64,000 nt of DNA. Source: an uncultured virus (IMG/VR IMGVR_UViG_3300025033_000016) (lineage: Duplodnaviria > Heunggongvirae > Uroviricota > Caudoviricetes). Position numbers and translations under genes: made by a program. Position 1 is the stretch's first letter, and each line of letters starts with the position of its first letter. This document shows positions 1,222 to 62,839 of this stretch, piece by piece. Under the pieces are notes generated by a model, which saw nothing but the letters and a program-made list of their open reading frames with translations, was not told where the DNA came from and ran no database searches. The DNA lies in the IMG/VR virus record IMGVR_UViG_3300025033_000016; one strand, given 5' to 3'.

Positions 1222-1446
1222 ATGCTATTCGAAGAGTTAGTAAATAAAGCTAAGCTAGAAGGCGTAGAGCTTCTACATGGCAACTCAGGCTCTGAGCTTA
1301 AGGACCTGTTAGGTATGCACTTACGCGTGCGGTTGCCGCTACAAGCTGACCGCATAACTCTAATCGAGGATGGCATTAAGTTAGTCAAAGAGTACGGGGC
1401 GGGGAGACTCTACGTGCATACTAGCGGCCTAGAGGTGTTAAAGTGA
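1222..1446 (+). CDS. Hypothetical protein
   Basis: Strong SD AAGGAGGT upstream; overlaps the next gene. Confidence 0.7.
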   Translation: MLFEELVNKAKLEGVELLHGNSGSELKDLLGMHLRVRLPLQADRITLIEDGIKLVKEYGAGRLYVHTSGLEVLK

Positions 1447-1718
1447 GTAAGTTTAAGCCTAAAGACTCGGTACGAGATACTAGAATGGACCGAGAGTGTC
1501 TAGTGTTGTGTGAGCATCCTAGTATGAAACGATACTATGCCGTAGCGACTGCCGACGGTGGGCTGTGCGTAGCTGATAGTGTTCATGCTGATTTACTTAT
1601 GCCGCACGTTAGTCCTGATACCATGTTTGACTGGACTTTAGAAGGAGATTTAGAGTTACTTGATAACCGCCATAAGCTTATAAGAGACTCACTGAGGGAG
1701 GATTTAGCTAATGAGTAA
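1443..1718 (+). CDS. Small KOW/SH3-like protein with shared C-terminal tag
   Basis: MSKFKPKD start; ends DNRHKLIRDSLREDLANE. Confidence 0.75.
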   Translation: MSKFKPKDSVRDTRMDRECLVLCEHPSMKRYYAVATADGGLCVADSVHADLLMPHVSPDTMFDWTLEGDLELLDNRHKLIRDSLREDLANE

Positions 1719-1965
1719 GTTTAAGGTAGGAGATACTATTCGTCACGGGCTAGCAGGTGAAATGATATTACTATTTAAATGCAAGTATAATAAAGATTAC
1801 TGGGTAGGGAAGCCACTTGATGATAGCGGCTATGGGTGGGACCTAGAGCCGAACTATCCAGGCAACATAGGCAAGGGCTGGAACGTAACCGATAACGAGA
1901 TTGTGTTAGTTGATAAACGACCTAGTGTAATAAGAGAAAGTTTAAGAGAGGATTTATTAAAATGA
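1711..1965 (+). CDS. Small KOW/SH3-like protein with shared C-terminal tag
   Basis: MSKFKVGD start, internal GYGW; ends DKRPSVIRESLREDLLK. Confidence 0.8.
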   Translation: MSKFKVGDTIRHGLAGEMILLFKCKYNKDYWVGKPLDDSGYGWDLEPNYPGNIGKGWNVTDNEIVLVDKRPSVIRESLREDLLK

Positions 1966-2198
1966 AACATGAATTAACGAGATACAATAACAGGAAGCTA
2001 TATTCCAAGTCAGCCAGTCAGTACGTAACGCTAGGTGACGTAGTGTTGATGGTTAAAGCTGGGGAGCAAGTACGCGTAGTGCAGTACGAAGGTGGTGAAG
2101 ATATCACTACTAGGGTGCTTAGACGAGCCTTTGCTAAAGTTAATGATGAAATTAGTGTAGAATATTTACATGACCTAATCAAGACTGAGGCTAACTAA
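1962..2198 (+). CDS. PhaR-like (PHA synthesis regulator) N-terminal DNA-binding domain protein
   Basis: RYNNRKLYS..SQYVTL.D...MVKAGE.V.V....GEDIT...L matches the PhaR N-terminal pattern. Confidence 0.8.
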   Translation: MKHELTRYNNRKLYSKSASQYVTLGDVVLMVKAGEQVRVVQYEGGEDITTRVLRRAFAKVNDEISVEYLHDLIKTEAN

Positions 2199-2199
2199 T

Positions 2200-2271
2200 A
2201 TGGGACTTTTAGTGTCGGCGGCTTTTGTTATAGTGTTCTTGGTATTTATATACGAGGTCATTAGTGGCTAA
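2200..2271 (+). CDS. Putative 23-aa single-pass membrane microprotein (MGLLVSAAFVIVFLVFIYEVISG)
   Basis: Fills the gap between two ORFs, GAGG upstream, 8-nt overlap with the next start; below the ORF-track cutoff. Confidence 0.5.
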   Translation: MGLLVSAAFVIVFLVFIYEVISG

Positions 2272-2455
2272 GTTAAAAGCCTACACCCCCATACGCATTA
2301 AGGGCCTTAAGAAGCTCAGCGGTGACGGGGATAGGTTCGATGCCTTCGGGGTATTCATTAAGGTAGTCATAGTTGGTGAGTTTAAGGGCATGGCGTTAGT
2401 GCGTATAGGTAGCACGCATCTACACGTACCACTAGATAAAATCGAGGAGTGTTGA
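2264..2455 (+). CDS. Hypothetical protein
   Basis: Co-directional ORF in a tightly packed operon, GAGG SD. Confidence 0.6.
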   Translation: MAKLKAYTPIRIKGLKKLSGDGDRFDAFGVFIKVVIVGEFKGMALVRIGSTHLHVPLDKIEEC

Positions 2456-3027
2456 GTATGAGTATAAAGATAGGGGACTTTGTTACTATAGATGTAGGCC
2501 CTTCTTCGATAGAGCCAATCAGGATTGAAGAAGCGCTTGTTTGTGGGCGGAGTATTAATAGCGGAAAATTCATTGTGGAATTGCCTAGGAGTACTGATAT
2601 TATTTTAGGTTGGTCGTCACTAGAGAGTAGCGACAATATTGAAATGACTCATCATGCTAGTTTCAGGTATCTATACATAGATAATGTCTTGGTATTCTTA
2701 GTAGACGATAGACCTAAAGCAGTAAGGGACGCCCTCAGAAAGGAGAGCTGGTACAAGTGTAAAGCTAGCGAGGCTGAGATAGGCGATATAGTATGTACAG
2801 AAGACTTATATCTAATGTATAAGCATGACGGCATACTTAGTCAGCTTAAACCTAATAGCAGCCTCGCTTATTATGTACATGATATTGAAGGTGGGTGTCT
2901 ATATTTAACCGATGACAGTAGAAAAGATCACGGACCTATCGTAAGTCTAAGTGACTGCGTATACAAATACGACAATAGAGCATCTGTAGTACGCGATAGT
3001 TTAAGGGAGGATTTAGATAATGAGTGA
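2449..3027 (+). CDS. Two-module protein carrying the shared tag twice (start probably 2458)
   Basis: KIGDFV...DDRPKAVRDALRKES then EIGDIV...DNRASVVRDSLREDLDNE. Confidence 0.75.
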   Translation: MLSMSIKIGDFVTIDVGPSSIEPIRIEEALVCGRSINSGKFIVELPRSTDIILGWSSLESSDNIEMTHHASFRYLYIDNVLVFLVDDRPKAVRDALRKESWYKCKASEAEIGDIVCTEDLYLMYKHDGILSQLKPNSSLAYYVHDIEGGCLYLTDDSRKDHGPIVSLSDCVYKYDNRASVVRDSLREDLDNE

Positions 3028-3241
3028 CGCAGTAAATAAACCCAAGCATTATAACTCTGGTAAACTAGAGGTGATAGACGTAATCAAAGATAGCTCTAGC
3101 TCTAGTGAGTTCGAGGGCTTTCTATCAGGTAATATAAAGAAGTACATACTAAGGTATCAATTTAAAAACGGCGTTGAAGATTTAAAAAAAGCTAAGGTCT
3201 ACTTGGAGTGGTTAATTCAGCATGTCGAAAACAAAGAGTAA
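3020..3241 (+). CDS. DUF3310 / T7 gp1.7-like protein
   Basis: DAVNKPKHY...GN..KY..R...KNG.EDLKKA..YL signature. Confidence 0.85.
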   Translation: MSDAVNKPKHYNSGKLEVIDVIKDSSSSSEFEGFLSGNIKKYILRYQFKNGVEDLKKAKVYLEWLIQHVENKE

Positions 3242-3518
3242 GTCACATAGTGAAGTAGAGCATTTAAACGGCTTAATACGCCAACTAAAGAAGCAGGTAA
3301 ATAAACTCACTCGTGATAACAGCCAGCTTAGAAAAGAACTAAACAGGAACCTAGATAAGAATACCAAGGAGTATGAGGATATGCCAGACGTACCTAAAAA
3401 TAAGCGTAGCGATAAAGGGGATTGTCCTGTATGCGGCGGCGTGCTTACTAGTATTGATCTAGGGGTGCGTAGTCTATTATCCTGCAAGGACTGTGAGTAT
3501 AGGAAGGTGTTAAAGTGA
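3222..3518 (+). CDS. Coiled-coil protein with C-terminal Zn ribbon
   Basis: Heptad N-terminus; CPVC...CKDC. Confidence 0.7.
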   Translation: MSKTKSKSHSEVEHLNGLIRQLKKQVNKLTRDNSQLRKELNRNLDKNTKEYEDMPDVPKNKRSDKGDCPVCGGVLTSIDLGVRSLLSCKDCEYRKVLK

Positions 3519-3811
3519 GTAAATTTAAGATAGGAGATAAGGTACATATTAACGACTACGGAGTGCGTGGAGTCGGAACCATAGTGTATAAGGACAAGAC
3601 CCATGACGATAGATTTCTATGCACAATAATTGAAGGCTGCCTTGGCTGGGGCTTGCATAATAAGGCAGGATCTTTACCCAAGGACTTTGATACATCTAAG
3701 CACAGCCCCAATGCTAAGATGTGGTGGGTTAATGAGGCTGAATTAGAGCTATTCGATACAAGATTCAAGATCATACGCGATTCGATTAGGGAGGACTTGT
3801 TAGGTGAGTAA
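3515..3811 (+). CDS. Tagged KOW/SH3-like protein, paralog of 24655..24951
   Basis: MSKFKIGD; shares DFDT.K..PNAKMWW; ends DTRFKIIRDSIREDLLGE. Confidence 0.8.
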   Translation: MSKFKIGDKVHINDYGVRGVGTIVYKDKTHDDRFLCTIIEGCLGWGLHNKAGSLPKDFDTSKHSPNAKMWWVNEAELELFDTRFKIIRDSIREDLLGE

Positions 3812-4196
3812 CACTAGAACTACTACATATAACCTATCTGTAACTAACTTGACTAGCTTAATGCGCACTATACGGGCTAATCAGAATAAGTTGTCTCCTG
3901 CTATAAGCGAGGGCATTCTCTATATTAGTGTTAATAGTAGTCAGTTTTGTGTCGAAAAGGATTTACCTGATAATAGAATCAGTACCGCGCTTATGCGCTG
4001 CCAAACCCGCTCTCGAAGCGCTAACTTTGACATTTACAAGCTAGAGAATAATATCATTGGTATGATAGAAGCTTTCTTACAAGAGAATAATGAACCAGAC
4101 GCAGTGGAAATAGTGAATACGCTACGAGGCTACACCAAAGCGCAGACTAGACTAGCGGTTAGGGACGGTATCGTGGAGGATTTAATGAATGACTAA
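3804..4196 (+). CDS. Hypothetical protein with variant tag
   Basis: Ends AVRDGIVEDLMND. Confidence 0.7.
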   Translation: MSNTRTTTYNLSVTNLTSLMRTIRANQNKLSPAISEGILYISVNSSQFCVEKDLPDNRISTALMRCQTRSRSANFDIYKLENNIIGMIEAFLQENNEPDAVEIVNTLRGYTKAQTRLAVRDGIVEDLMND

Positions 4197-5428: not shown

Positions 5429-5429
5429 T

Positions 5430-5669
5430 ATGCTTAAATTTAAGGTGGGGGATATAGTAGAGCTGGGGATAGATATAGCTGGAATGAAAAGAGGCTTAGT
5501 AAAAATCACAAAAATAGATTACCCTGACCCTATGTTCCAGCTCCCTTACCGAGTTGCAGTCGAAGGTTTTCCTTATGTGCTATGGGTTAGGGAGGAGTGG
5601 TTACATGCCTTAGACAACCGACCTAGAGCAGTGAGGGCTTCGTTACGGGAGAATTTACTAGATGACTGA
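5430..5669 (+). CDS. Tagged KOW/SH3-like protein
   Basis: KFKVGD; ends DNRPRAVRASLRENLLDD. Confidence 0.8.
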   Translation: MLKFKVGDIVELGIDIAGMKRGLVKITKIDYPDPMFQLPYRVAVEGFPYVLWVREEWLHALDNRPRAVRASLRENLLDD

Positions 5670-5976
5670 TATAAAGTTTGAATTGGGGCGTAAATATGTT
5701 TTAGCTTCATGGGGACGCAAAAATATTATAGGAACTTATTGTGGAACTTTTAGTAGCAGTAGGTATAACAAAGCTCCTTTATTCATGCTAGAGTCTAGCA
5801 GCTCAGCGTTAGGCTGGGCTCGGTCTAACATGGGCAAGGCGAATATACTCCTACCACATGATAAGTATTCTCGATTTTTATATGAAGATAAGATTGGCAT
5901 TAGTGTAGTTGGTGCAGTAGATGAAAGGCCAAAAATAGTACGTGACAGCTTAAGGCAAGATCTACTAGAAGACTAA
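5662..5976 (+). CDS. Tagged small protein, last gene before the convergent polA
   Basis: Ends DERPKIVRDSLRQDLLED. Confidence 0.75.
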   Translation: MTDIKFELGRKYVLASWGRKNIIGTYCGTFSSSRYNKAPLFMLESSSSALGWARSNMGKANILLPHDKYSRFLYEDKIGISVVGAVDERPKIVRDSLRQDLLED

Positions 5977-8127
5977 CTACTTAGCCTCTGCTAAGTTATT
6001 GCCTACTACGGGGTCAGCTTCCATAGGCACTGTAATCAGCTTAGTTAGTTCGTTATTCTCCATGCAATCCTTTAGCAGCTTAGACGCTGCATCTACGTGC
6101 TCATCTTTTACTACTAAGATAACTTCATCATGTACAGTGGATACAATTTTAGCGTCTAAATCTCCTCGACGAGCCACGAAGTCTATCATAGCCTTATTAA
6201 CTAGACTGGCAGCTAGTGACTGAATCTGAAAGTTACGGGCGTTGTTAAGCTCGCCATTAGCTCTAATGAATATCTTTAACGGGTCCTCTACTCCTAGTAG
6301 CGGCCTTCGTACCTTGCGTTTAATCTCAAACTTATCAGGACGCTTAATGCCATACTTATCATGTAGTTCTTTTAGCATAGGAGTTCTACGTCTACGGCCT
6401 ACCTTAGACTCGATGTAGCCTTGCTTACGTGCTAGTATGAGTGTAGTGTTCATCCATTTAGCTAGGTCAGGATAGGCCGCTAGGTAAGCGTCTATGAGCG
6501 CCTTAGCTTCCTCTACTTCTATGTTAAGCGTCTTAGCTAGTTTATACTCCTGCATACCGTACGGGATGCCTAACGCAATCGGCTTAGTTTGCTGCCTTTT
6601 GTCCTTAGCTAACTTACCTAAGTAATTGGGAGCATCGGGGCGTGCTGAGTATTCGGTACTGTTAAACATGTCTACATAAATCTTAGAGTAGAAGTCTAAG
6701 CCCTCTGAGTATACGGCTTGCAGCTTAGGGTCGCCAGCTACTTCACTAAATATGCGAGGTTCCAAACTGCTAAAATCTAAAGAGATTAATTTATAGCCTA
6801 TAGGAGCTTTGAATCCTAGCTTAATTCTAATATCATCCCTAGGTAGGTTCTGAAAGTTAATCGGCTGCGCTGAGCTAAATCTTCCTCCAGTAGTGCCTGT
6901 CTGTTTAAAGGAGGTGTATATTCTACCGTCCTCATGGCCATTCAACACAGCCTCTACATAAGTAGATAGCACTTTCTTTTCTTTACTGCGATATAGCATG
7001 AGCTTTAATATTTCGCTGCTCTCGGAATATTCATTGACTAGCTTATCAATTACTGCGGCTGTAACTTGACGCTTACCCTTAGCAGTAGTGCCTTGCTCAG
7101 GTAATTCTAATACATCAAATAGTAGTACAGCTTTATCATCGTTACTATCGAAGTTAAACTTGCGCTTTAATCCTTTACTATCTAAAAATAACTTTAGTAT
7201 TAGATCACGGTAGTCGTCTAGAGGTTGACCCTCTTCCCAGCCGTGCTGCATTAATGCCTTGCCCATAACACTGCGCTTAGTAAACTTAGTCTTAGCAATC
7301 ACTGAGTCGATTTCATATTCGTTTACTTTATCTGCAATCATAGCATACATCTCATCCTCAATGGACTCAACGGTACCAGTAATATCTTTCTTTAAACCTT
7401 CGAAGTAGGGGATGTCTACGTCAAAACCTGTAGTGTTTAGCTCATATGTAACAGCATTAAGCGGCCACACTTCCTCATTCCATAGTTTAAGTAGCTTTAC
7501 GCTAGCTTCAATCTGAGGCCAGAGCTTTTCCCATAAACCGTAGGTGTAGATAGTATCATATGCGCCATAGGTTCCTAGAAGCAGCACATCGCCTTTATAA
7601 AACTCTTTGTTAGTAGCTTTCCATTCCCCACCGTTAGCTATAACACTAGCTTTTAAGTCATCCTGGGGAGCCGAGGCTTCCTCAGTTAAGTACTTAGTAG
7701 CTAAATCTTTTAGGCCGTGTGGTGGATTCTCGTCTACCGTGTGATGTATGAGCTGCGTGTCATATTTGAAATACTGCAAGGCTTCTATTCCTAGTGAAGT
7801 CTTGAGTATTCTAGCATCGAATGGTACGTTATGGCCTATGAGTCTTTGGGACTTAGTTACTTGCTCGGTTATCCAGCTTCGTACTAGTTCATCAGCTTCT
7901 AAACTCCAGGGGCTTACTAGAGAGTCTATCTCCTTGTTATACACTAATAGTGGTATGTAAATACCTAGGTCTGAGCTTGGTGAGAATGATACTCCAATGG
8001 CTATCGAGTCTTGTCTCAGTCCGTTAGTCTCAGTGTCTACTGCCAGTAACTTAGCGTTGCTAATCAAGTCTGAATATTCTAGTAGACGAGCGGTAGATGT
8101 GATTACTTCAACGATAGGCTTAGTCAC
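5977..8127 (-). CDS. polA: DNA polymerase family A (3'-5' exonuclease + polymerase)
   Basis: ExoI DTET, ExoII HNVPFD, TGTTGGRFSS..NFQNLP, motif A DFSSLEPR, motif B RQQTK...GIPYG, motif C VHDE. Confidence 0.95.
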   Translation of the reverse strand: MTKPIVEVITSTARLLEYSDLISNAKLLAVDTETNGLRQDSIAIGVSFSPSSDLGIYIPLLVYNKEIDSLVSPWSLEADELVRSWITEQVTKSQRLIGHNVPFDARILKTSLGIEALQYFKYDTQLIHHTVDENPPHGLKDLATKYLTEEASAPQDDLKASVIANGGEWKATNKEFYKGDVLLLGTYGAYDTIYTYGLWEKLWPQIEASVKLLKLWNEEVWPLNAVTYELNTTGFDVDIPYFEGLKKDITGTVESIEDEMYAMIADKVNEYEIDSVIAKTKFTKRSVMGKALMQHGWEEGQPLDDYRDLILKLFLDSKGLKRKFNFDSNDDKAVLLFDVLELPEQGTTAKGKRQVTAAVIDKLVNEYSESSEILKLMLYRSKEKKVLSTYVEAVLNGHEDGRIYTSFKQTGTTGGRFSSAQPINFQNLPRDDIRIKLGFKAPIGYKLISLDFSSLEPRIFSEVAGDPKLQAVYSEGLDFYSKIYVDMFNSTEYSARPDAPNYLGKLAKDKRQQTKPIALGIPYGMQEYKLAKTLNIEVEEAKALIDAYLAAYPDLAKWMNTTLILARKQGYIESKVGRRRRTPMLKELHDKYGIKRPDKFEIKRKVRRPLLGVEDPLKIFIRANGELNNARNFQIQSLAASLVNKAMIDFVARRGDLDAKIVSTVHDEVILVVKDEHVDAASKLLKDCMENNELTKLITVPMEADPVVGNNLAEAK

Positions 8128-8341
8128 TAAGTAAATCCTTTCTGAGTGAGTCCCTTACTACACTGGGACGTTCGTCTATTAATTCAACGTCGCCCTCGCG
8201 CACTAGAAAGCCAAGTACGCCTTCCTGGACTCGATAAATAAAGTCGTCCCTCTGCTCAACATCTATCTCAACTATTAGGAGCGTTTTAGACACTGGGTCG
8301 CTTTTAAACCTGATTCGATCTCCAACCTTGAATTTAGTCAC
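8120..8341 (-). CDS. Tagged KOW/SH3-like protein
   Basis: MTKFKVGD; ends DERPSVVRDSLRKDLLSD; overlaps the polA start. Confidence 0.8.
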   Translation of the reverse strand: MTKFKVGDRIRFKSDPVSKTLLIVEIDVEQRDDFIYRVQEGVLGFLVREGDVELIDERPSVVRDSLRKDLLSD

Positions 8342-8570
8342 CTAGTAAATTCTCCCTTAATGAGTCTCTGATTATACTAGGCCGCTGATCTGCTAGCCTA
8401 ATTTCAAAGCCCCGCCTTCGAATCCAAGGAGCTTCACCGTCAGGATTAGGGGATTTTCTAAGCAGCTTATATACGATAGTATCAAAGGTGCTGCGGCTAG
8501 ATATAACCTCAAACATCACATCGCCATAGGTTTGAGTCACCACTAAATCGCCCTTTTTAAAGTTATTCAC
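8334..8570 (-). CDS. Tagged KOW/SH3-like protein
   Basis: FKKGDLV; ends DQRPSIIRDSLRENLLGD. Confidence 0.8.
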   Translation of the reverse strand: MNNFKKGDLVVTQTYGDVMFEVISSRSTFDTIVYKLLRKSPNPDGEAPWIRRRGFEIRLADQRPSIIRDSLRENLLGD

Positions 8571-8883
8571 CTAACAAGTCCTTCCTTAAGGAGTCCCTAA
8601 CGGCCTTAGGCCGCGAGTCTACCGCCCGTAATATCTTTACATCAGCACTAAGTGCGAAATAGTAGGAGTTGGAATGGAATTTGAGGGGGACTTTAATAGC
8701 GTCTTTTATTTCAGGCTTATCATCTAATATCCAACCTAGATCATGCCGCTCAAACTCTAAAATAAAAGCATTAGGTAGTTCTACCTGTCGCCCTACTACG
8801 TAAGCTAGATAACGATGACCGCCATACCAAAATAGCTCGCACTCATAAGTTTTGCCTATCTCTAGCTTATCTAGCTCAATCAT
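8563..8883 (-). CDS. Tagged small protein
   Basis: LEIGKTY, LGW; ends DSRPKAVRDSLRKDLLGE. Confidence 0.8.
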   Translation of the reverse strand: MIELDKLEIGKTYECELFWYGGHRYLAYVVGRQVELPNAFILEFERHDLGWILDDKPEIKDAIKVPLKFHSNSYYFALSADVKILRAVDSRPKAVRDSLRKDLLGE

Positions 8884-9226
8884 TCAGTAAATCTCCCCTC
8901 AAAGCTTCATTAACGATGAACTTAGTGTATACGTCCTGCTCTATTTTATAAAAAGTAGTTCCTATTAAGTTTAAAAAGTCTGAGGACTCTCCAAGATGGC
9001 TAAGTATTATAGGCTTTGTAGGCTCAACTCCATCATACCATAATAGCTTAGTATAAATAGCTGCTTGTTTAACTACTTGAGCACCTAACTTAAATGCCTC
9101 ATCTTCACTAATGACTCTCTCAACTCCCAGATCAATTAACAATAAATTACCGCAGCTAACTTTCCATACTGGAGTAGGTTTACCGTCTAAACGCTTTCGA
9201 AGCTCATCCGCTGTATACTTACTCAT
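8876..9226 (-). CDS. Hypothetical protein with variant tag
   Basis: Ends IVNEALRGDLLND. Confidence 0.7.
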   Translation of the reverse strand: MSKYTADELRKRLDGKPTPVWKVSCGNLLLIDLGVERVISEDEAFKLGAQVVKQAAIYTKLLWYDGVEPTKPIILSHLGESSDFLNLIGTTFYKIEQDVYTKFIVNEALRGDLLND

Positions 9227-12098: not shown

Positions 12099-12164
12099 TT
12101 AATTCTCCTTTGTGGGGGTAAGGTCGTGCTAAAATAGAGGCCCTTAGAAGGGCGTATAGAGCGT

Positions 12165-13257: not shown

Positions 13258-13269
13258 ATATTTCCCCTT

Positions 13270-13889: not shown

Positions 13890-13931
13890 TTCTAGCCTCC
13901 TCTGTTATAGATGGGTCGCCATGTATTAAAC

Positions 13932-15124: not shown

Positions 15125-15153
15125 AAGCTTCCCTCCTATTTACAGGTAATACA

Positions 15154-16248: not shown

Positions 16249-16254
16249 GCATAG

Positions 16255-16283: not shown

Positions 16284-16289
16284 GCTAAA

Positions 16290-20048: not shown

Positions 20049-20633
20049 CTATTCGTTAGCTAAGACTTCATCTGCTAACCCCTCTTTAACCGCATCCTCG
20101 GCTGTATATGGCCTGTCAAACAGCTGTAATTTATCTAGTGCTTTTTTATTAAATCTAGGCTTTTTATGCTTGATTCTTTGTACTAAAATATTATCTATCT
20201 TAGCTAGATACTTCCGCTCAAAGTTACGCCAAGATTCTACGTCTGCCTCATGTCCTGAGTACCCTACCTGCCCTTTATGTATCATTACGATGGAGTGTTC
20301 TGATACTATCCTGTGATCGGCTGCTTGTAGGATAACTGCCCCCATACTACTTGCACTACCTCGTACAATAATAGTAATGTGATTAGCCGCTTGCATAATT
20401 GCGTCGTATATAGCCATTCCTGCATATATCTCTCCGCCGTCATGATTCATTATGATGGTTATAGGCTTATCTCCAGCAGGAGCGCTAGAGTCCAGAGCAT
20501 GGAGATCTTTTAAGAACTTATGTAGCCTATCTGATTCAGACTCGTTCTCTGATAGCGGATTAAGCCACATAGTACGTCTCCCTAAGTCCACCCCTAGTAA
20601 GTACATCTTCTCTAGCTGCTCTAGTCTACTCAT
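20049..20633 (-). CDS. clpP: ClpP-like serine protease
   Basis: PITIIMN..GG...GMAIYD, G.ASSMG (catalytic Ser), VMIH, A.DAV..GL.D. Confidence 0.85.
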   Translation of the reverse strand: MSRLEQLEKMYLLGVDLGRRTMWLNPLSENESESDRLHKFLKDLHALDSSAPAGDKPITIIMNHDGGEIYAGMAIYDAIMQAANHITIIVRGSASSMGAVILQAADHRIVSEHSIVMIHKGQVGYSGHEADVESWRNFERKYLAKIDNILVQRIKHKKPRFNKKALDKLQLFDRPYTAEDAVKEGLADEVLANE

Positions 20634-21127
20634 TTCAATAAATCCTCTCTAAGACTGCTACGTACCGCAGTTGCTGATAATTGCTTTTTATATGCTTCAG
20701 TCATTTTTACGTCAAGCTCATATGACGTGTGCTCAAAGTAGTCAAAGCCTAATACGTCAGATTCCTCTTTACTTGGCGTTACTGAATCAATCCACCTAAC
20801 TACTTCATATTGAGCAGTGAACCTGTTAACAGTTACTATCCTGATATAAACTGTAGCTTTTCCGTAAGGTTTGCTTATTATATCACCTGCTTTATACTGT
20901 GGTTTTAGCGTCCAGTCACCTAAGCATATAAACCTAAGGATGCTTACCCATTTGAGGTTCAGGACGTTCTTGCGTATTAAATAACTGGCTACTAAGGTAG
21001 AGGGTACTCCTACCAGTGTTAGTAGGTTTATAGGCGGCTGCTTTACACTGCGATCTACTACTACCACTGCGGCGGCTAGTAGATTAACAATTACCCAAAC
21101 TACCGATACTACATACAACCAAGTCAT
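20630..21127 (-). CDS. Membrane protein with KOW-like domain and tag
   Basis: Hydrophobic N-terminus, YKAGDII; ends AVRSSLREDLLK. Confidence 0.7.
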   Translation of the reverse strand: MTWLYVVSVVWVIVNLLAAAVVVVDRSVKQPPINLLTLVGVPSTLVASYLIRKNVLNLKWVSILRFICLGDWTLKPQYKAGDIISKPYGKATVYIRIVTVNRFTAQYEVVRWIDSVTPSKEESDVLGFDYFEHTSYELDVKMTEAYKKQLSATAVRSSLREDLLK

Positions 21128-21504
21128 TTTAGCAAATCCTCTCTCAAAGCACCTCTGACTACTTGTGGTCTAGGGTCTATTTTCTTGCAATGCTTTTCAT
21201 CGTGCCACCCATAAACACCGTGTGGGGTTACGCATTCCGGTAATACTGCGGTTTCTGTCGTGCTGAAATCAAAGAAATCTATGCCGACTGGGGGGTAGGT
21301 AGACATTAGTTTACCGCTACCTTCAACGTATTGTAGTAGTACGTAATCATCTGGCTGCGGGAAAGTGTCGTTGGGGCGTGTCTCTATAGCTTTGCCGTAA
21401 GTATAATCCACTACCTCTTTACAGTCTTCCCATCTAGCTACTACTCTAAATAGGCAAATATAGCCTGCAAAAGTCACTACATCTCCAGCCTTTAATTTAC
21501 TCAC
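21124..21504 (-). CDS. Tagged KOW/SH3-like protein
   Basis: KLKAGDVV; ends DPRPQVVRGALREDLLK. Confidence 0.8.
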   Translation of the reverse strand: MSKLKAGDVVTFAGYICLFRVVARWEDCKEVVDYTYGKAIETRPNDTFPQPDDYVLLQYVEGSGKLMSTYPPVGIDFFDFSTTETAVLPECVTPHGVYGWHDEKHCKKIDPRPQVVRGALREDLLK

Positions 21505-21814
21505 TAGCTAAATCCTCCCTTAACGAGTCTCGCACTGCCTTGGGGCGTAGGTCTACTAATCTTAACTCCTCCTCATTTGCCCAGGTATAGTTTTTATCTC
21601 CATTACTATTTATATAAGCAGCTAAATCGCAGCTGAGGTCTACTTCGGTAACAGTTAATAGAGATGCTAGGGTTTGGTAGTCGGGCGTTAGAAGCGTGGG
21701 GTAAACGATTAACACAGTGCCATCGGCAATATCATAGCAGACTACTTCAAATAGCTGATCTGGAAGCCATCTACCATCTGACCTTACTATATCCCCTGGC
21801 TTAAACTTATTCAC
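21497..21814 (-). CDS. Tagged KOW/SH3-like protein
   Basis: KFKPGDIV; ends DLRPKAVRDSLREDLASE. Confidence 0.8.
   Translation of the reverse strand: MNKFKPGDIVRSDGRWLPDQLFEVVCYDIADGTVLIVYPTLLTPDYQTLASLLTVTEVDLSCDLAAYINSNGDKNYTWANEEELRLVDLRPKAVRDSLREDLASE
21505..21544. repeat. 40-bp exact direct repeat, copy 1 (copy 2 at 24952..24991)
   Basis: TAGCTAAATCCTCCCTTAACGAGTCTCGCACTGCCTTGGG present at both sites; encodes the tag. Confidence 0.9.
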
Positions 21815-22730: not shown

Positions 22731-23011
22731 TGAAAGTTTTAAAAAACATCTGGGCGTGGGTAATTGCTGTTATCGGCTTTTTACTCGTAGCTTTAAAGAT
22801 TAGCAACTCTAAAAAGAACGCAGCTGAAGCTAAGGCTGCCTTGAGCGATACTAATAACAAACATGCTGAGCTAGAAGGTAGTCGCGCTAATATAAGAGAA
22901 AATCTAATCTACTTAGAAAAGAAAAAACAGGAGCTGATAAATTCTCAGCCCCCGTCGGGATTAACTCCTAAGCAAGTCGAAGCTTATTGGGCTTCTAAAG
23001 AGCGTAAATAG
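22730..23011 (+). CDS. N-terminal TM coiled-coil protein (i-spanin-like topology)
   Basis: Hydrophobic segment followed by heptads. Confidence 0.5.
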   Translation: MKVLKNIWAWVIAVIGFLLVALKISNSKKNAAEAKAALSDTNNKHAELEGSRANIRENLIYLEKKKQELINSQPPSGLTPKQVEAYWASKERK

Positions 23012-23754
23012 CTTTCCAGCATCTCAACTAAATCCTCTTTAGGAACTGCTATCATCCACCCTGCGTCATTACCCGCATAGATTACGCCTACTACATTACC
23101 GAAGAAGTTTACTGTAGGAGAGCCGATACTACCTCCCAGACCATGCACCGTAGTATGTAAGGACTCACTTACCCTAATACATACTACCATACCTTGAATT
23201 ACTACGGCTACAGTGCCAGTCTTATTTATACAGTAATCATGATCTTCCTTAGATAAAATCAAGGCTAATAAGGTATTAGACTTATGTAGTCCGATGAGTT
23301 GACCTTTGGACAAGGTAAACGGCATTACAGCTGGATGCCCTACTGCCATGACCTCTTCTCCTAGCTCATAGCGGCTAGCTAACTGCAAACCTTTTATTGA
23401 GTGTTCAGTTTGAATCTCAAGTAAGCATAAATCAGCGGGGCTTTTTACATGCGTCTTTTTTAAGGCTAATATGCGCTCTTTTCCATTAAGCGTATAGGTA
23501 GCCTGCGCTGCATCCTCTTGTAGATCACAAATGTGATCGTTGGTGACAGCTAAGGTTCTACCTTTATACTCTAGCACAAAGCCCGTTCCTACTGGATATC
23601 CGTGTTTATTTTTCATTAACAAGGTACTACTCTGTGTTTTACTTCTAATGTAATTGGAATGATACTGTGGAGCCTTTAGTACCATAAAAGCCCCTGCTAT
23701 AAAGCTTATGGTCAGTAGTCCTACAATAAATATATTTTCTCTAAGTCTAGTCAT
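22984..23754 (-). CDS. Membrane-anchored trypsin-like serine protease; catalytic Ser apparently Ile
   Basis: GTGF, TNDHIC, DLCLL, GHP, GGSIGSP...G.VVGV. Confidence 0.8.
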   Translation of the reverse strand: MTRLRENIFIVGLLTISFIAGAFMVLKAPQYHSNYIRSKTQSSTLLMKNKHGYPVGTGFVLEYKGRTLAVTNDHICDLQEDAAQATYTLNGKERILALKKTHVKSPADLCLLEIQTEHSIKGLQLASRYELGEEVMAVGHPAVMPFTLSKGQLIGLHKSNTLLALILSKEDHDYCINKTGTVAVVIQGMVVCIRVSESLHTTVHGLGGSIGSPTVNFFGNVVGVIYAGNDAGWMIAVPKEDLVEMLESYLRSLEAQ

Positions 23755-23998
23755 CTAATAAATCCTTTCGTAACGCAGCTCTAACTGCTTGTGGTCTTTC
23801 GTCTTGTACTAAATAATCCTCGAACGGTTGATATTCAACGATCCCTAGTGATGTAGCCAGCTTTAGTTTGTTAGGCATAGTAGTTACCACCTTACCTACT
23901 GGTATATATCGCGGATGGTTGGGGATTTTTGTATACACCCACTGTCCTTGTTTTAGGTGTACACCTTTAATCCATATGTAGTTATTAGGGTCCGACAT
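23747..23998 (-). CDS. Tagged small protein
   Basis: LKQGQWV; ends DERPQAVRAALRKDLLDD. Confidence 0.75.
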   Translation of the reverse strand: MSDPNNYIWIKGVHLKQGQWVYTKIPNHPRYIPVGKVVTTMPNKLKLATSLGIVEYQPFEDYLVQDERPQAVRAALRKDLLDD

Positions 23999-24004
23999 TT
24001 ATAC

Positions 24005-24658
24005 CTAGAACTCCGTAACCTGATGGGCTAGTAAATTCAGCTTTTCAATTACTCTGCTAGGGTAGAAGGCGGCATTGGCTACAGTAACCTTACTTACACC
24101 TTCTTGCTTAGCCCTAGCAATTACTATAGCCAAAGCATCCGTTAAGTCATGTGGTATTTCCCGATTCTTCAGTGTAATGTTAGATTTAATCTCAGTAGGC
24201 AGTAGTGGGATATAGGAACGCACGCAGTCTGCTGTAGGCTTCTTATAGTCTCGCTTAGTCTTGCCGTTTACTTTTTCAGTAATAGCTTTGATTCCTAAGA
24301 TACCTCTCCAACTAGAGGCTGACAGCTCGTTATAAGCTACTCGGTGCTTAGCGCAGGACTTCTCAACGAATGCGTTGATGGTAGGAATCACAGCGGCAGA
24401 GCCTAACTGTTTAGGATTCATAAAATAAGCTTCAGTAGTAGCCTCTTCTGTAATCAAGTCGCTAGCTGCTCCTCCCACTAATAAGTCTAGTCCCGAGTCC
24501 ATGTACAAGAAGCGCTGCCCTCTAGACCACTTAGTTCTAGTCCACAACATACCCGCTGCTTTTATGTACAATTCATCTGGATTTAGGTCTGCTACTACAT
24601 ATGCAAGGTGACTAGCTGAGGGGTCAATTGCTAATAAAGTTTTACGCTTCTTGCTCAT
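24005..24658 (-). CDS. ruvC: RuvC-like Holliday junction resolvase
   Basis: LAIDPS, EAYF, W...G, D.TDALAI. Confidence 0.7.
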   Translation of the reverse strand: MSKKRKTLLAIDPSASHLAYVVADLNPDELYIKAAGMLWTRTKWSRGQRFLYMDSGLDLLVGGAASDLITEEATTEAYFMNPKQLGSAAVIPTINAFVEKSCAKHRVAYNELSASSWRGILGIKAITEKVNGKTKRDYKKPTADCVRSYIPLLPTEIKSNITLKNREIPHDLTDALAIVIARAKQEGVSKVTVANAAFYPSRVIEKLNLLAHQVTEF

Positions 24659-24951
24659 TTTAGTAGGTCCTTTCTTAACGCAGCTCTGACTGCTTGAGGA
24701 CGGCTGTCTATTAGAGTTAGTTGAGCCTCATCAGCCCACCACATCTTAGCATTGGGGTTATACTTAGTCGTATCAAAATCAGACTCATCGCCTAAGTGGG
24801 GGGACCGGTGCAACTCCCATCCGTACTTTCCTTTGGAAATTTTACATAGTAGCCCATATGGTTTTCTCTTTTTATACACCACAATACCTACTCCCACTTC
24901 TCTATCAGAGTAGCGTATTACCACCTCATCTCCTACCTTAAACTTACTCAT
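24655..24951 (-). CDS. Tagged KOW/SH3-like protein, paralog of 3515..3811
   Basis: MSKFKVGD; ends DSRPQAVRAALRKDLLK. Confidence 0.8.
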   Translation of the reverse strand: MSKFKVGDEVVIRYSDREVGVGIVVYKKRKPYGLLCKISKGKYGWELHRSPHLGDESDFDTTKYNPNAKMWWADEAQLTLIDSRPQAVRAALRKDLLK

Positions 24952-25327
24952 TAGCTAAATCCTCCCTTAACGAGTCTCGCACTGCCTTGGGTCGATTATC
25001 TGGCATTAGAGTTATGCACTGAAAAAAGCTCATGTCGTCCCTAGTTCTAACAAACTCGTCACCTACTTTAATACTAGAATAGGCTTCTATGTGACTCGTC
25101 TTAAGCTTAGCATCTAACCTAAACGTGCAAATCTTTGAGTCCATATCTACTAAAGTTAACTCCCACACATCTATAATAGAAGCACCCTTCAAGTTATTAT
25201 GTAAAATACTTACGAAGTTAGTATCATCATATAAGTATTTAGCTCCAATTTTTAAATTGGATGGGATTACGCGTATTGTCGGATATGGGAAGGTATAGCT
25301 AGATTTAAACATACTATTAATTGACAT
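24944..25327 (-). CDS. Tagged small protein
   Basis: LKIGAKY; ends DNRPKAVRDSLREDLANE. Confidence 0.75.
   Translation of the reverse strand: MSINSMFKSSYTFPYPTIRVIPSNLKIGAKYLYDDTNFVSILHNNLKGASIIDVWELTLVDMDSKICTFRLDAKLKTSHIEAYSSIKVGDEFVRTRDDMSFFQCITLMPDNRPKAVRDSLREDLANE
24952..24991. repeat. 40-bp exact direct repeat, copy 2
   Basis: Identical to 21505..21544. Confidence 0.9.
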
Positions 25328-59890: not shown

Positions 59891-60282
59891 GCTTTAGGAA
59901 TCTCCCCTTTTTTACTAGCGTTAAACATAAATTCACCGTCAAAGGCATCTTTAGTTGATTGTTCGTTATTTTCAATTGAAGTTTCTAGCTGTTTAATTCT
60001 AGCTGAGGATCTATCTACAAACTCTTCTACCTCTTTCATCATGTCCGACACCTTCATAGTATCTTCTAAAGCTTCTAACTGAGCTTTTCTAGATTTAGCA
60101 TCTTCTGTAGAGCCTATAACCTCGAAAACATCGAAAAACTGCTCGTTAATGTCCTTGATAGTCTTATAGATGATAGCTCGCTCAGCTGTGGAGCCTCTAT
60201 TCATATGCTTAGCGGCTTTTAGGTTACTATCTACTAATACTTCCAATAGTTCTTTTAGATCTTCAATAAGTTTCTTACTCAT
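59887..60282 (-). CDS. Hypothetical coiled-coil protein
   Basis: Own promoter. Confidence 0.65.
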   Translation of the reverse strand: MSKKLIEDLKELLEVLVDSNLKAAKHMNRGSTAERAIIYKTIKDINEQFFDVFEVIGSTEDAKSRKAQLEALEDTMKVSDMMKEVEEFVDRSSARIKQLETSIENNEQSTKDAFDGEFMFNASKKGEIPKA

Positions 60283-60288
60283 ACACCA

Positions 60289-60317
60289 ATATTAGCGTAT
60301 TTCTAGGGCTTTGGCAA
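60289..60317 (-). promoter_or_regulatory. sigma70-type promoter TTGCCA-N17-TAATAT
   Basis: 6 nt before ATG 60282. Confidence 0.6.
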
Positions 60318-60320
60318 GTA

Positions 60321-61028
60321 TTAACTTAACAAATCACCGTATTTTTCTAAAAGACGAGCCCGCTCATGCTCATTTTCAACAGAATTAAGGGAGTCCTTGA
60401 TATATTTAATATCTTCTGGAGTTAATTGCTGCTTTATCTCAGGAAATTTATCTCCCAAGTACAATTCAGCTTCAGCTAAGCGTCTTTTAGTGATGCCTGG
60501 TAGTTTATCTTTATTAGATCGCAGCATAATCTCGGCAGCAGCTCCCATGTCATCTCCTGTAGCAACTTTATGCTGTAACATAGGGCCTATAAGCTGCGGA
60601 TTATTGTAATAAAGGCTTAACAGGGCTGCATGTTGGTTGGTTTGGAGCGGTGGGCGCTCCGGTTCCCGCTTAATTTTACGCTTATATTCAGGTAATTTGA
60701 TCTTAAGAGTCTCTTTAGCTAATAACTGTGACTGTTCAGGAGTTAAACTGCTCTGAGACGCTCTCAGTTGCCCTGTATTGATCGATAAGTTCTTGGCGGC
60801 ACGTTGGGTCGCTGGGCTATTTAAGTTCGCTCCTACACCAATTGTGTCGATCTGAGAGGTGTCCTTGTACACTGTAGGACTCATTCCTTCGTGTTCCTCC
60901 AAGAATCCGAATGTAGTATCTACTAGCTCTGCATCAGGGTCCTCAATTTGAGACTGCTCTACGGCTGGCTGGACTCCTAATCGTACTTCCGCTAGCTTAT
61001 CTTTATTTAATATCTTCTTTAGATCCAT
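60321..61028 (-). CDS. GH24 (T4-type) lysozyme-domain protein
   Basis: HEG....Y.D....TIGVG, Q.AAL.SL.YN, G...RR.AE..L; start placed at MDLKK. Confidence 0.8.
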   Translation of the reverse strand: MDLKKILNKDKLAEVRLGVQPAVEQSQIEDPDAELVDTTFGFLEEHEGMSPTVYKDTSQIDTIGVGANLNSPATQRAAKNLSINTGQLRASQSSLTPEQSQLLAKETLKIKLPEYKRKIKREPERPPLQTNQHAALLSLYYNNPQLIGPMLQHKVATGDDMGAAAEIMLRSNKDKLPGITKRRLAEAELYLGDKFPEIKQQLTPEDIKYIKDSLNSVENEHERARLLEKYGDLLS

Positions 61029-61182
61029 AAGAACTACTTCCTGTGAGGCGGTTGAGAAGTTTTGATAGTTTATTGAGCCGAGGACGGCGATTACCAGACT
61101 CCAATTTCTTAGGTTTATCGCCATATACTGACTTTAGCATACCTTCTAGGTTTTTAACACTATTAACTGGATTATTAGCCAT
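61003..61182 (-). CDS. 59-aa basic protein resembling the capsid N-terminus
   Basis: NLEGMLKSVYGDK versus QLDGLFKKVYADK; ATG follows the AACAAAT motif. Confidence 0.55.
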   Translation of the reverse strand: MANNPVNSVKNLEGMLKSVYGDKPKKLESGNRRPRLNKLSKLLNRLTGSSSYGSKEDIK

Positions 61183-61195
61183 ACCCTTGATTTGT

Positions 61196-61459
61196 TTAGT
61201 CTGCTGTATTGAGGTCTTCAACCAAGGCGTCTCTAACTAACTTCCTAGTATAAGCCTCATAGCTCATTAAATCAGTTTCTTCAACGCCATAACGCCTATC
61301 TCTATCATCTAGCTGCTCTGACATTATTAAGTATCTGAACTTATTATCGTGACCCCTGGCTGACACTAATACTCTAGCAGGTCCGTACACTATCTCACCG
61401 TTATGCAGTAATACTACCCGCTCGTCGTAATTAAATAAAGGCTTTACTTGTATTGTCAT
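61196..61459 (-). CDS. Small protein with variant tag
   Basis: AAGGAGGT SD; ends LVRDALVEDLNTAD. Confidence 0.75.
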   Translation of the reverse strand: MTIQVKPLFNYDERVVLLHNGEIVYGPARVLVSARGHDNKFRYLIMSEQLDDRDRRYGVEETDLMSYEAYTRKLVRDALVEDLNTAD

Positions 61460-61497
61460 GCAGTTACCTCCTTGTAACTAGCTATATCGTAATTAGT

Positions 61498-61914
61498 TTA
61501 CACTTGTCTAGTGTCGGCTACTATCTGCAGCCTCTTACTAGATTCTAGCCTATTCTTGTTATCCATTATCACGACATCCAATGCTTTCTTAGGATTCCGA
61601 TAGAAGCCTGTAGTGCAATCATTGCCTACCTTAAGGAATAGGCCGCTCCATCTCGTGTGGAAGAAGCTTAGGATAGCCGAGTCAGCTCTAAGCCAGCCTT
61701 GTCCAGCATCGAACTCTGCGAACCTCTTATTGATTGATTTAGCTGTAACCTTGTTAGAACTCGGTACAGCGCATATAACGCGTACTTCTCTTCCAACCTT
61801 ACTACAAAGGGCATGTAGAGCGCTACTTAGCTGCTTACCTCCCTTAGACCGCATAACTCTATAGCTAAATCCATCAGTCACTAAGTAAATTACATGCTTG
61901 TCTAATATTAACAT
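61498..61914 (-). CDS. Hypothetical protein
   Basis: Promoter TTGCAT-N17-TATACT at about 61928-61956 places the start at MLILD. Confidence 0.5.
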   Translation of the reverse strand: MLILDKHVIYLVTDGFSYRVMRSKGGKQLSSALHALCSKVGREVRVICAVPSSNKVTAKSINKRFAEFDAGQGWLRADSAILSFFHTRWSGLFLKVGNDCTTGFYRNPKKALDVVIMDNKNRLESSKRLQIVADTRQV

Positions 61915-62485
61915 AAGCTTATCTCTAAGTATAACACGTATACAAATAAAATGCAACCCTTATTCACTTTCTTATTGAAAATGATACAAAAATATGATAT
62001 AATCTAGTTATAGATTGTTTAATTCGCAAAGTTAAACACATATGCAGCATACCAAAGAGCTGTTGCAGCATAAACAAACAATGCAGCAAATAAACATGAA
62101 CAATGTTGCATAAACAAATCCAATAAATGATGCCATTGCAGCGAATGCATAGCAACAATCACAGATTTTATAGCGATTATATCTTTAGGCTGAAGGGGAT
62201 AGTTATACCCTACTTTTAGGGTGTAAATTCATAGCATTTATGAATAGATCTTACTTAGCTTGTATGCTAATAAATTCAGCTACTTACAAGTACACCCCGA
62301 TAGGCAATGAATACATTAGTGAATAGATAACACCTTAGTACTGCGAAACTAACGATACCTATGATTTTATATTGCGTGACGCTTAGTGTTATGCGATGTA
62401 CTAAGTGCAATCATCCCCCCAGTTCCGCAACACCCCCCTTCTTTTTTAGGTAGCTTAATCTGGAAGACTGTGGTATAGTTTGTAT

Positions 62486-62839
62486 ATGAGTAACAACTGG
62501 TGGAAAGGTTTATCTAAAGAGCAGATAGCTGGTATGAGTTTTACGCTTGCGGAGAGCAGCGCTTTGTATAAATCAAGAGCTTACACTTTTCCAGAAAGTA
62601 ACGTGTTTAGAGTTGTAGCGATCCCTAAACGTACAGCTATGGAGTTTTTTATAATCCAGCCAGCAGATAGCTTAGGTCTTAACGAAGGCTGGAAATTCGA
62701 GCATGTCAGTAGTTATAACGTATTAACTAGCTTTGATCCTAAAAAGGGGTGCTGGGGATTAAAGCCTACAGAGTTAGTGCCTGTAGATCTCAGGCATAGA
62801 TTAGTCCGAGATAGCTTAAGAGAGGATCTGTTAAAATGA
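62486..62839 (+). CDS. Tagged small protein
   Basis: Extended -10 TGGTATAGT 6 nt before ATG; ends DLRHRLVRDSLREDLLK; overlaps the thyX start. Confidence 0.75.
   Translation: MSNNWWKGLSKEQIAGMSFTLAESSALYKSRAYTFPESNVFRVVAIPKRTAMEFFIIQPADSLGLNEGWKFEHVSSYNVLTSFDPKKGCWGLKPTELVPVDLRHRLVRDSLREDLLK

Follow-up and report, generated by a model that had tools for sequence, protein, structure and literature searches.

In the window studied here, a stretch of 64,000 nucleotides (nt) from IMG/VR record IMGVR_UViG_3300025033_000016 that covers the greater part of a genome of about 78.2 kb from an uncultured phage, a short C-terminal peptide tag is shared by many small and otherwise variable proteins. With the rest of the genome included, 29 tagged open reading frames (ORFs) are found among roughly 130, which is about a quarter of the genes, and the peptide that they share is 10–16 residues long. 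The tag consists of an amphipathic helix of about 12 residues, x-x-V-R-D-S-L-R-[E/K]-D-L-L, held under selection at the peptide level and joined by a D-x-R-P turn to a small SH3-like barrel in most carriers. We infer, at about even odds (a probability of roughly 0.5), that this helix acts in trans, as a handle for docking or assembly that its carriers have in common and that would tie many variable early proteins to one surface, belonging either to a phage or host partner or to each other. The last five to seven codons at the same time supply a Shine-Dalgarno (SD) site and an overlapping start for the next gene, holding the tag 1–2 residues from the stop, and this dual coding makes of each junction a repeat of about 50–75 nt, so that recombination between junctions can move the tag to other genes. 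Most small early phage genes are without known function or experimental handle, and the tag, used as a single bait, could in one step identify the partner common to a quarter of the proteome. Should this partner prove to be a protease, a compartment or a host hub, phage take-over of the host would here follow a new principle. The locus also offers a clean case of dual coding in nature, as the same codons specify part of a protein helix and the site at which ribosomes bind for the next gene, and it illustrates how a protein module can pass from gene to gene by way of repeated junctions.

Occurrence and position of the tag

The first-pass annotation of the window had listed 21 ORFs as ending in the motif or a variant of it, and all of them do, the one placed at 62486 starting from an ATG two codons inside a TTG-started ORF (62480–62839). 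The second copy that it had noticed in ORF 2449–3027 is likewise present, as an internal one at 2704–2751 (DDRPKAVRDALRKESW). A loose regular expression applied to the six frames gave 18 matches, each located 1–2 codons before a stop. A position matrix derived from the V-R-D-S-L-R-E-D-L-L columns of the family was run, in six frames, over the 77,689 ten-residue segments of 75,852 bp, comprising the window and its extension in locus L007, which overlaps window positions 60263–64000 at 100% identity and adds 11.85 kb. At 8 bits or more it returned 31 matches, namely 28 ORF ends (21 in the window and seven in the extension), one relic, one internal copy and one other, at 27719 (8.7 bits), which is likely due to chance; 29 of the 31 lie 1–4 residues before a stop. 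A further tagged ORF, P0023, lies just beyond L007 and brings those outside the window to eight. Weak variants of the tag are carried by ORFs 3804 (VRDGIVEDLM), 8876 (VNEALRGDLL) and 61196 (VRDALVEDLN). In 25 of the 28 copies the motif is followed by 1–2 residues, and the last residue is Asp in 11, Glu in nine, Lys in six, Thr in one and Val in one, that is, charged in 26 of the 28. Hereafter, ORFs of the window are prefixed with w and those of the L007 extension with x where the two have to be told apart.

The carriers are confined to five clusters of early or replication genes and are absent from the structural block at 28.6–58.2 kb, and annotation of the phage proteins bears out the earlier claim that the tag sits on no identified replication or structural gene. 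This placement bears directly on one of the options raised at first pass, capsid loading, considered here as a capsid- or virion-loading signal similar to the capsid-targeting sequence (CTS) of T4, the C-terminal helices of scaffolds or the cargo peptides of encapsulins, which has become the least favoured of them, since every carrier belongs to an early, replication or nucleotide-metabolism operon and the structural module has none. The amphipathic helix would suit such a signal, and a short peptide common to many diverse small proteins follows the logic of the T4 internal proteins as set out in PMC3012670. However, all 29 carriers stand in operons with primase-helicase, PolA, ribonucleotide reductase (RNR), exonuclease/RecA-like and ThyX genes, w20630 appears to be membrane-anchored, and the likely scaffold and head proteins have no similar ending. 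We also know of no precedent for about 29 different cargo species, and loading into the capsid is, on balance, very unlikely.

Conservation of the peptide and dual coding of its end

For the 28 tag copies, codon use was set against that in 21 long phage genes. As had been noticed at first pass, Ser codons are mixed (TCA, TCG, TCC, AGT and AGC), and so are Arg codons (AGA, AGG, CGA, CGC, CGT and CGG). Codon homozygosity at the D, R, P, V, R, D, S, L and R columns is at or below the genome expectation, with values of 0.13 versus 0.25 expected for the Arg of column 2, 0.25 versus 0.40 for Val, 0.18 versus 0.20 for Ser, and 0.26 and 0.25 versus 0.25 for the Arg of columns 7 and 11. By Nei-Gojobori counts, the proportion of synonymous differences (pS) in the conserved columns is 0.87–0.91 and hence saturated, at a proportion of nonsynonymous differences (pN) of 0.15–0.29, and the three free columns show pN/pS ratios of 0.81–0.83. 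Conservation of the nucleotides alone, named beforehand as the finding that would speak against a protein-level tag, is not seen, as synonymous sites are saturated throughout D-x-R-P-x-x-V-R-D-S-L-R. Since this saturation is combined with low pN, the 5′ two-thirds of the tag have been kept as a peptide over a long divergence time.

In the 3′ part of the tag the Glu codon is GAG in 17 of 18 copies, in a genome that uses GAG and GAA about equally; the Leu before Glu is encoded by TTA in 14 of 25 copies, and the terminal Asn by AAT in six of six. The sequence TTA AGG GAG GAT within the tag reads as an SD site, and the stop and the start that follows share bases in ATGA or ATGAGTAA. An overlapping start follows 19 of the 21 tagged window ORFs, and in each of these 19 downstream genes an SD-like word is found 8–13 nt upstream of the start, inside the tag, in its R-E/K-D codons. 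The last five to seven codons (L-R-E-D-L-L-x-x-stop) are doubly coded, as the end of the peptide and as the SD site and start of the next gene.

Such coding invites the view that the element acts purely on the level of nucleic acid or translation, whether as a coupling or recombination repeat or as a nascent peptide that controls re-initiation in the ribosome at the stop. The 3′ third, being an SD site plus an overlapping start, the fixed distance to the stop, and the 40-nt identical tracts, out-of-frame relic and assembly breaks at repeats described below would all follow from it. It is nonetheless highly improbable in the light of the saturated synonymous sites in the 5′ two-thirds and of the helical periodicity with one conserved face, which fits a folded helix and not an extended nascent chain. 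RNAalifold found no consensus RNA structure at the 28 junctions (0 pairs). Moreover, the two copies without a downstream gene (5662–5976 and L007 10570–10788) keep the peptide and not the SD site, reading AGG CAA GAT and AGA AAA GAC, respectively. As a separate observation, the 'LLK-stop' junctions read TTA AAA TGA, at which slippage by −1 on A-AAA would lead into the frame of the next gene.

Exchange between gene junctions

DNA-level exchange between junctions also occurs. Identical tracts of 40 nt are found in the junctions of 21497 and 24944 and in those of 1443 and 24944, the bodies of which are not related by BLAST (E 0.6 and 2.5), and the junction of 24944 is composed, mosaic-like, of those of 21497 and 1443. 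A relic junction at L007 13546–13593 reads RLRLIRDALRKDLEE-stop (...IRDALRKDLEE), with an SD site, and then ATG; its frame is open for only 16 codons, without a start, and lies out of frame inside ORF L007 13476–13898. Two explanations offer themselves, a true gene start at the ATG at 13590 or the fusion of a new N-terminus across the old junction.

The junction repeats, identical over at least 31 nt, are long enough to confuse assemblers. Public assemblies break or mis-join at 1684–1734, 3686–3739 and 4445–4482 and have loose ends at 8396 and 8614. These joints and loose ends, considered as variants, were rejected as such, being contig breaks at intragenomic junction repeats.

The tagged bodies

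The bodies had been described at first pass as highly divergent or unrelated. This does not apply to most of them, as about 23 of the 29 carriers belong to one SH3-like paralog family, and the idea of a tag on unrelated effectors was overstated to that extent; it does apply to at least four other body types, all with the core of the tag, and in this respect portability stands. Most carriers begin with M-S-K-F-K-V-G-D and have G-W and W motifs inside. Leave-one-out hidden Markov models (HMMs) were built from the tag-stripped sequences of 20 full-tag ORFs, and nine of these scored at E < 1e-3 and five between 1e-3 and 1e-2, so that 14 of the 20 are related; values for the remaining six (8563, 5662, 24944, 23747, 62480 and P0023) were not significant. 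The body HMM also matched L007 5332 (x5332) with E 0.003. Among 207 other ORFs, the best body match was L007 9417–9707 (E 0.003, the next best being E 1.8), which encodes 96 amino acids (aa) with an N-terminal 'IQVGDIV', 'WW' motifs and the diverged ending SLRYHLIEDFKAVV, and is probably a family member with a decayed tag. Every SH3-family body found with the body HMM at E < 1e-3 has the tag, a statement that is circular for the training members. By eye, 20630 appears to be a membrane-anchored family member, and 8876 and L007 5744 (x5744) form a second small family with 'ADELR..TPV'. On the evidence of these sequence profiles, the carriers are mostly a single phage-specific SH3-like expansion, with more than 20 copies in this phage lineage.

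Clearly different bodies are found in five proteins of four types, namely w9500, w3804, w8876 together with x5744, and x14683. They carry mainly the core V-R-[DS]-[SA]-[LI]-R-x-D-L-[LM], and x14683 also has R-P. A homolog of w9500, P0032, aligns only to residues 33–168 and shows no tag. Searches of Pfam and PHROGs with the tagged proteins gave nothing significant except phrog_4400 for w9500.

Structure of the barrel and the helix

An AlphaFold2 (AF2) model of the 73-aa member 8120–8341, computed from a 23-row alignment, reached a predicted local distance difference test score (pLDDT) of 79.9 and a predicted template modelling score (pTM) of 0.61, and contains five strands within residues 9–54 followed by a helix at residues 60–71, the latter with a pLDDT of about 64–77. 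Foldseek gave no match to the modelled barrel at E ≤ 1e-3. With VIA-align, the best match was R67 DHFR (1vie; Z 7.2, root-mean-square deviation 2.0, 54 residues), where a Z below 8 may reflect a common arrangement only, and HspQ (Z 6.7) and Tudor, chromo-barrel and KOW domains (Z 5.5–6.7) were also matched. Since nearly all structural matches span residues 1–56 only, the body is, as modelled, a generic SH3-like barrel and the helix appears to be an addition to this fold. Structural neighbours in the Atlas are phage 'SH3-like' clusters and a 341-aa DUF3310 cluster.

Plotted on a helical wheel, the six positions of highest conservation occupy an arc of 160 degrees and comprise L14 (28 of 28 copies), R7 (27), R11 (26), D13 (26), L10 (25) and V6 (24), with D8, S9, E12 and L15 opposite this face and more variable. 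The tag is an amphipathic helix at the terminus of the SH3-like family and of four other body types, and w9500, x14683 and x5744, the bodies of which are not SH3-like, retain its conserved face with the exposed Arg and Asp. A one-sided, partly polar conserved face that is retained on unrelated bodies points to an interface acting in trans.

The alternative that comes next is an inherited end-piece without a common partner, that is, a cap acting in cis or a stable, charged 'safe ending', which would have been kept together with the ribosome-binding site and spread as a by-product of recombination between junctions. We consider this explanation less likely than docking. It is supported by the relatedness of the tag-stripped bodies in 14 of 20 full-tag ORFs (E ≤ 0.01) and in x5332, the tagging of all SH3-family bodies at E < 1e-3 (circular for training members), and the charged terminal residue in 26 of the 28 copies. 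Both the use of the same codons for the SD site and start and the exchange between junctions are demonstrated, and the relic at L007 13546–13593 persists out of frame. The chromo-barrel domains MRG15 and MSL3, which pair a barrel with a C-terminal helix, are among the weak Foldseek matches (all E > 1e-3). Yet tag-less remote homologs indicate that the barrel does not need the helix, and bodies that are unrelated, and hence unable to offer the same packing surface, have the same face. The exposed R7, R11 and D13 (27, 26 and 26 of 28) are, moreover, as conserved as the hydrophobic positions on bodies that have diverged beyond recognition, as is seldom the case in a helix with a structural role only.

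The reading that we favour remains docking or assembly in trans, and several points weigh against it. Most carriers are paralogs, so that simple inheritance explains much of the sharing, and only five proteins of four types are clearly non-SH3, with weak variants of the tag in w3804 and w8876. The SD site and the start of the next gene, located in the last codons, account for part of the conservation and for the fixed distance to the stop. The pLDDT of 64–77 for the modelled helix does not show whether it packs on its own barrel, and the searches returned no relative with a diverged tag in which co-variation with a partner might be seen.

Distribution and relatives

Among 1.84 billion representative proteins, the family profile found 24 matches at E ≤ 1e-3, of which 21 have the lengths of ORFs of this phage, five of them, on contigs of up to 78,201 bp, being located in L007 or in a second locus, L014. 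The remaining three are tri-repeat proteins without a tag, each matched in three stretches, namely P0021 (E 1.1e-5), P0022 (E 1.6e-5) and P0024 (E 3.3e-4); in P0022, DUF3310 is fused behind the three SH3-like repeats (Pfam E 1.3e-16). By eye, each repeat in these proteins begins with Met-x-[K/E/A]-F after a Glu/Lys-rich linker, the likely codons of which resemble SD sites, and this suggests that they are fusions of once separate, coupled mini-genes.

A degenerate DNA pattern for D.RP..[VI]RD[SA]LR[EK]DL was found in IMG/VR only on contigs of this phage (five stretches), and in the JGI metagenome contigs in six stretches, all on one 78,201-bp contig of this phage. In the genomes of 185,579 species, one for each, VRD-S(TCN)-LREDLL gave seven matches, close to the chance estimate of about four, all internal (3 to 183 residues to the stop) and several inexact. 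Neither 24655 nor w9500 had a tblastn match in 50,697 phage records, and searches for related loci with PolA and P0019 returned only this phage. To judge from these searches, the tag occurs outside this phage in none of the genomes covered. Strain variants of the tagged proteins are 98–99% identical and uninformative, and populations are near-clonal (0–4 differences per 12.2 kb per run, six variant positions in total), which leaves no power for a population-level ratio of nonsynonymous to synonymous rates (dN/dS).

Comparison with known systems

The CTS of T4 stands at the N-terminus; it directs late proteins, made with the head genes, to the scaffolding core and is removed by the prohead protease. 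In the T-even internal proteins, one short conserved peptide addresses diverse small proteins to one place (PMC3012670). The likeness to the present tag lies in the short conserved peptide on otherwise diverse small phage proteins, whereas the present tag is C-terminal and helical and is found on about 29 proteins of early operons outside the structural block. Encapsulation peptides (EPs) and encapsulin cargo peptides are short amphipathic terminal helices of unrelated cargo, which bind one shell or drive co-assembly. The likeness is met with in the short amphipathic terminal helix on an SH3-like family and four other bodies; the difference is that the present tag is much more strongly conserved and that most of its carriers form one paralog family. 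The pattern of the tag presumably also resembles specific EP sequences. In their way of working, the CTS of T4, the EPs of bacterial microcompartments (BMCs; compare PMC4594438 and PMC12339742) and ordinary translational coupling come nearest to the tag. No BMC or encapsulin shell families were found by Pfam or PHROGs among the proteins scanned, a set that covers the last ~2 kb of the genome only partly.

Translational coupling is evident from the 19 of 19 genes that start on the stop codon of a tagged window ORF with an SD site in its R-E/K-D codons, but it explains only the last five to seven codons, while the upstream 10–12 residues are kept as a peptide. Small SH3-like or LSm-like early proteins, very divergent and of unknown role, have been described in T4 as GoF, MotB.1 and Frd.2 (PMC12152347), and SaV is described as an early, toxic phage protein (PMC8306868). 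A connection with these groups is seen in the tri-repeat homologs, in the DUF3310 end of P0022, and in the DUF3310 gene 3020–3241, which starts on the stop of the two-domain ORF 2449. In contrast to the present proteins, in which each domain is a separate tagged gene, no common C-terminal tag is reported for those proteins or was seen on them.

A far-reaching version of the favoured reading would make the tag a phage-wide address label, by which more than 20 fast-evolving SH3-like binders and a few enzymes, each with a different target, would be brought to one phage-specified hub, either the phage's own ClpP-type protease, resulting in targeted proteolysis, or a co-assembly or condensate of early proteins. 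This is conceivable, if rather unlikely. Its closest analogue in concept is provided by the poxvirus ankyrin-repeat families, in which variable binding bodies carry a constant C-terminal F-box-like (PRANC) motif that docks to a degradation machine; these differ in belonging to a eukaryotic virus and in fold and motif, and the link to proteolysis in the present phage is by gene adjacency only. Because position, sequence and genomic context all differ, the tag belongs to none of the peptide families compared. The open-access literature, as far as it was searched, describes no C-terminal tag that is common to phage mini-proteins in this way.

Tagged genes and their neighbours

Gene adjacency is the sole link to another possible function, a proteolysis handle read by the phage ClpP together with a host unfoldase or adaptor, for which the tag would be either a timed degron or the adaptor end for host targets. 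The ClpP homolog (20049–20633; PDB ClpP E 4e-12, with Ser, His and Asp of the catalytic triad aligned) begins at the stop codon of the last gene in an unbroken row of three tag genes (20630–21814), but its best matches are 'head maturation protease' families (phrog_94, 2.7e-28), and as no other prohead protease was found among the phage proteins it may serve the capsid. Likewise, the trypsin-like peptidase 22984–23754 starts on the stop of tag gene 23747, the subtilase L007 7403–8113 lies just upstream of tag gene L007 8176, and the DUF2201 metallopeptidase/VWA gene 19–1212 precedes the cluster 1443–5976. HspQ, among the better structural matches of the barrel (Z 6.7), is called a specificity-enhancing factor for Lon in its PDB title. 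In ssrA-type degrons, however, non-polar residues at the extreme C-terminus are read by the unfoldase, and the extreme C-terminus of the present tag is variable and charged. Since, in addition, no unfoldase with a tag-binding domain was found in the phage, its sole AAA+ gene being MoxR-like, we regard proteolysis as an unlikely function of the tag.

Protease genes are unusually many for 78 kb, being located in or beside the tag clusters at 19–1212, 20049–20633, 22984–23754, L007 7403–8113 and L014 2488–3042. The DUF2201 metallopeptidase/VWA gene adjoins the MoxR-like AAA+ gene, and the subtilase belongs to S8.

Table 1. Tagged ORFs of the window and the untagged genes coupled or adjacent to them. 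E values are from the leave-one-out or family body HMM unless another source is named; matrix scores refer to the position matrix of the tag.
Position	Strand	Feature	Evidence
1443..1718	+	Tagged SH3-like mini-protein, 91 aa; tail DNRHKLIRDSLREDLANE	Leave-one-out body HMM E 0.0059
1711..1965	+	Tagged SH3-like mini-protein, 84 aa; tail DKRPSVIRESLREDLLK	Leave-one-out E 0.0012
2449..3027	+	Two fused family domains, 192 aa; decayed internal tag at 2704–2751; terminal tag DNRASVVRDSLREDLDNE	Two stretches matched in the profile search (P0001)
3020..3241	+	DUF3310 (SaV-like), no tag; start overlaps stop of ORF 2449	Pfam PF11753 E 4.5e-22
3515..3811	+	Tagged SH3-like mini-protein, 98 aa; tail DTRFKIIRDSIREDLLGE	Leave-one-out E 8.5e-12
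3804..4196	+	130 aa, body not SH3-like; weak tag TRLAVRDGIVEDLMND	Family HMM E 40; matrix 10.5 bits
4189..4482	+	Tagged SH3-like mini-protein, 97 aa; tail DKRPKLVRDALREDLLK	Leave-one-out E 1.2e-5
5430..5669	+	Tagged SH3-like mini-protein, 79 aa; tail DNRPRAVRASLRENLLDD	Leave-one-out E 6.5e-4
5662..5976	+	Tagged, 104 aa; converges on PolA, no downstream gene; peptide DERPKIVRDSLRQDLLED	Leave-one-out E 2.0, not significant
5977..8127	-	Family A DNA polymerase, no tag; GTG start overlaps stop of 8120–8341, SD site inside the tag of the latter	
8120..8341	-	Smallest tagged SH3-like protein, 73 aa; tail DERPSVVRDSLRKDLLSD	AF2: five-strand barrel and helix 60–71, pLDDT 79.9
8334..8570	-	Tagged SH3-like mini-protein, 78 aa; tail DQRPSIIRDSLRENLLGD	Leave-one-out E 0.0068
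8563..8883	-	Tagged, 106 aa; tail DSRPKAVRDSLRKDLLGE	Leave-one-out E 5.6, not significant; 'LEIGKTY..LGW' common with 5662 by eye
8876..9226	-	116 aa, second small family; weak tag KFIVNEALRGDLLND	Family HMM E 11; matrix 14.4 bits
9500..10186	-	228 aa, unrelated family; tail HTSVRDSLRSDLLSE	phrog_4400, E 7.1e-8
20049..20633	-	Phage ClpP-type serine protease, no tag; start overlaps stop of 20630–21127	CLP_protease E 4.6e-26
20630..21127	-	165 aa, N-terminal hydrophobic segments and SH3-like stretch 'YKAGDII' (by eye); tail ATAVRSSLREDLLK	Family HMM E 0.13
21124..21504	-	Tagged SH3-like protein, 126 aa; tail DPRPQVVRGALREDLLK	E 0.0011
21497..21814	-	Tagged SH3-like protein, 105 aa; tail DLRPKAVRDSLREDLASE	E 2.1e-10
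22984..23754	-	Trypsin-like peptidase, no tag; start overlaps stop of 23747–23998	Trypsin_2 E 9.6e-14
23747..23998	-	Tagged mini-protein, 83 aa; tail DERPQAVRAALRKDLLDD	Leave-one-out E 18, not significant
24655..24951	-	Tagged SH3-like protein, 98 aa; tail DSRPQAVRAALRKDLLK	E 2.3e-10
24944..25327	-	Tagged, 127 aa; tail DNRPKAVRDSLREDLANE	Body E 5.7, not significant
61196..61459	-	87 aa, weak tag TRKLVRDALVEDLNTAD; 71-nt gap to next gene	Matrix 20.4 bits; E 19
62480..62839	+	Tagged, 119 aa; tail DLRHRLVRDSLREDLLK; thymidylate synthase gene next	

The phage and its genome

The same tags are present on the 78,201-bp contig among the JGI metagenome contigs, and another virus record (G001) is identical to window positions 11448–20000 at 100% and represents the same phage. 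The count of about 130 genes is made up of 92 greedy ORF calls in the window and about 34 new ones in L007. Replication and recombination are represented by genes for PolA, a primase-helicase, Erf, a RecA/UvsX-like protein and exonucleases, and nucleotide metabolism by RNR, ThyX and dCTP deaminase; the MoxR-like AAA+ gene is present with the VWA/DUF2201 protein. The structural block contains terminase, portal, major head protein, SU10-type adaptor, internal virion protein, tail fibres and lysins. The best match of PolA in the 50,697 phage records was 29% identical by tblastn, and megablast gave no match. This groundwater phage was found in sequencing runs labelled as aquifer and hot-springs metagenomes, and one run from an RNA library held 27% of the sampled words of 1400–10200 and contigs over parts of 230–11614, for which DNA carry-over is possible.

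The SU10-type adaptor domain lies at 39543–40487 (E 7.3e-7) and the internal virion protein match at 36281–39532, which suggests a podovirus distantly similar to the SU10/phiEco32 type, with very low identity to any cultured phage. In the RNR large subunit (16290–19004, 904 aa), RNR families are matched in two blocks, at residues ~20–225 and 602–903, and residues 272–508 match a terminase-like PHROG instead, suggesting that the middle stretch is an inserted element such as an intein or homing endonuclease. A LAGLIDADG endonuclease gene (51267–51989) is found directly upstream of the major head gene and a 510-aa HNH/homing endonuclease gene (48417–49949) directly downstream of it, and PHROGs gives an HNH-like annotation to 19–1212, so that the phage appears to be rich in selfish endonucleases. 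Between tag genes, at 1962–2198, is encoded a 78-aa protein matching PHB_acc_N (E 1.3e-15), the DNA-binding domain of regulators of polyhydroxybutyrate/polyhydroxyalkanoate (PHB/PHA) accumulation, which possibly serves as a phage regulator.

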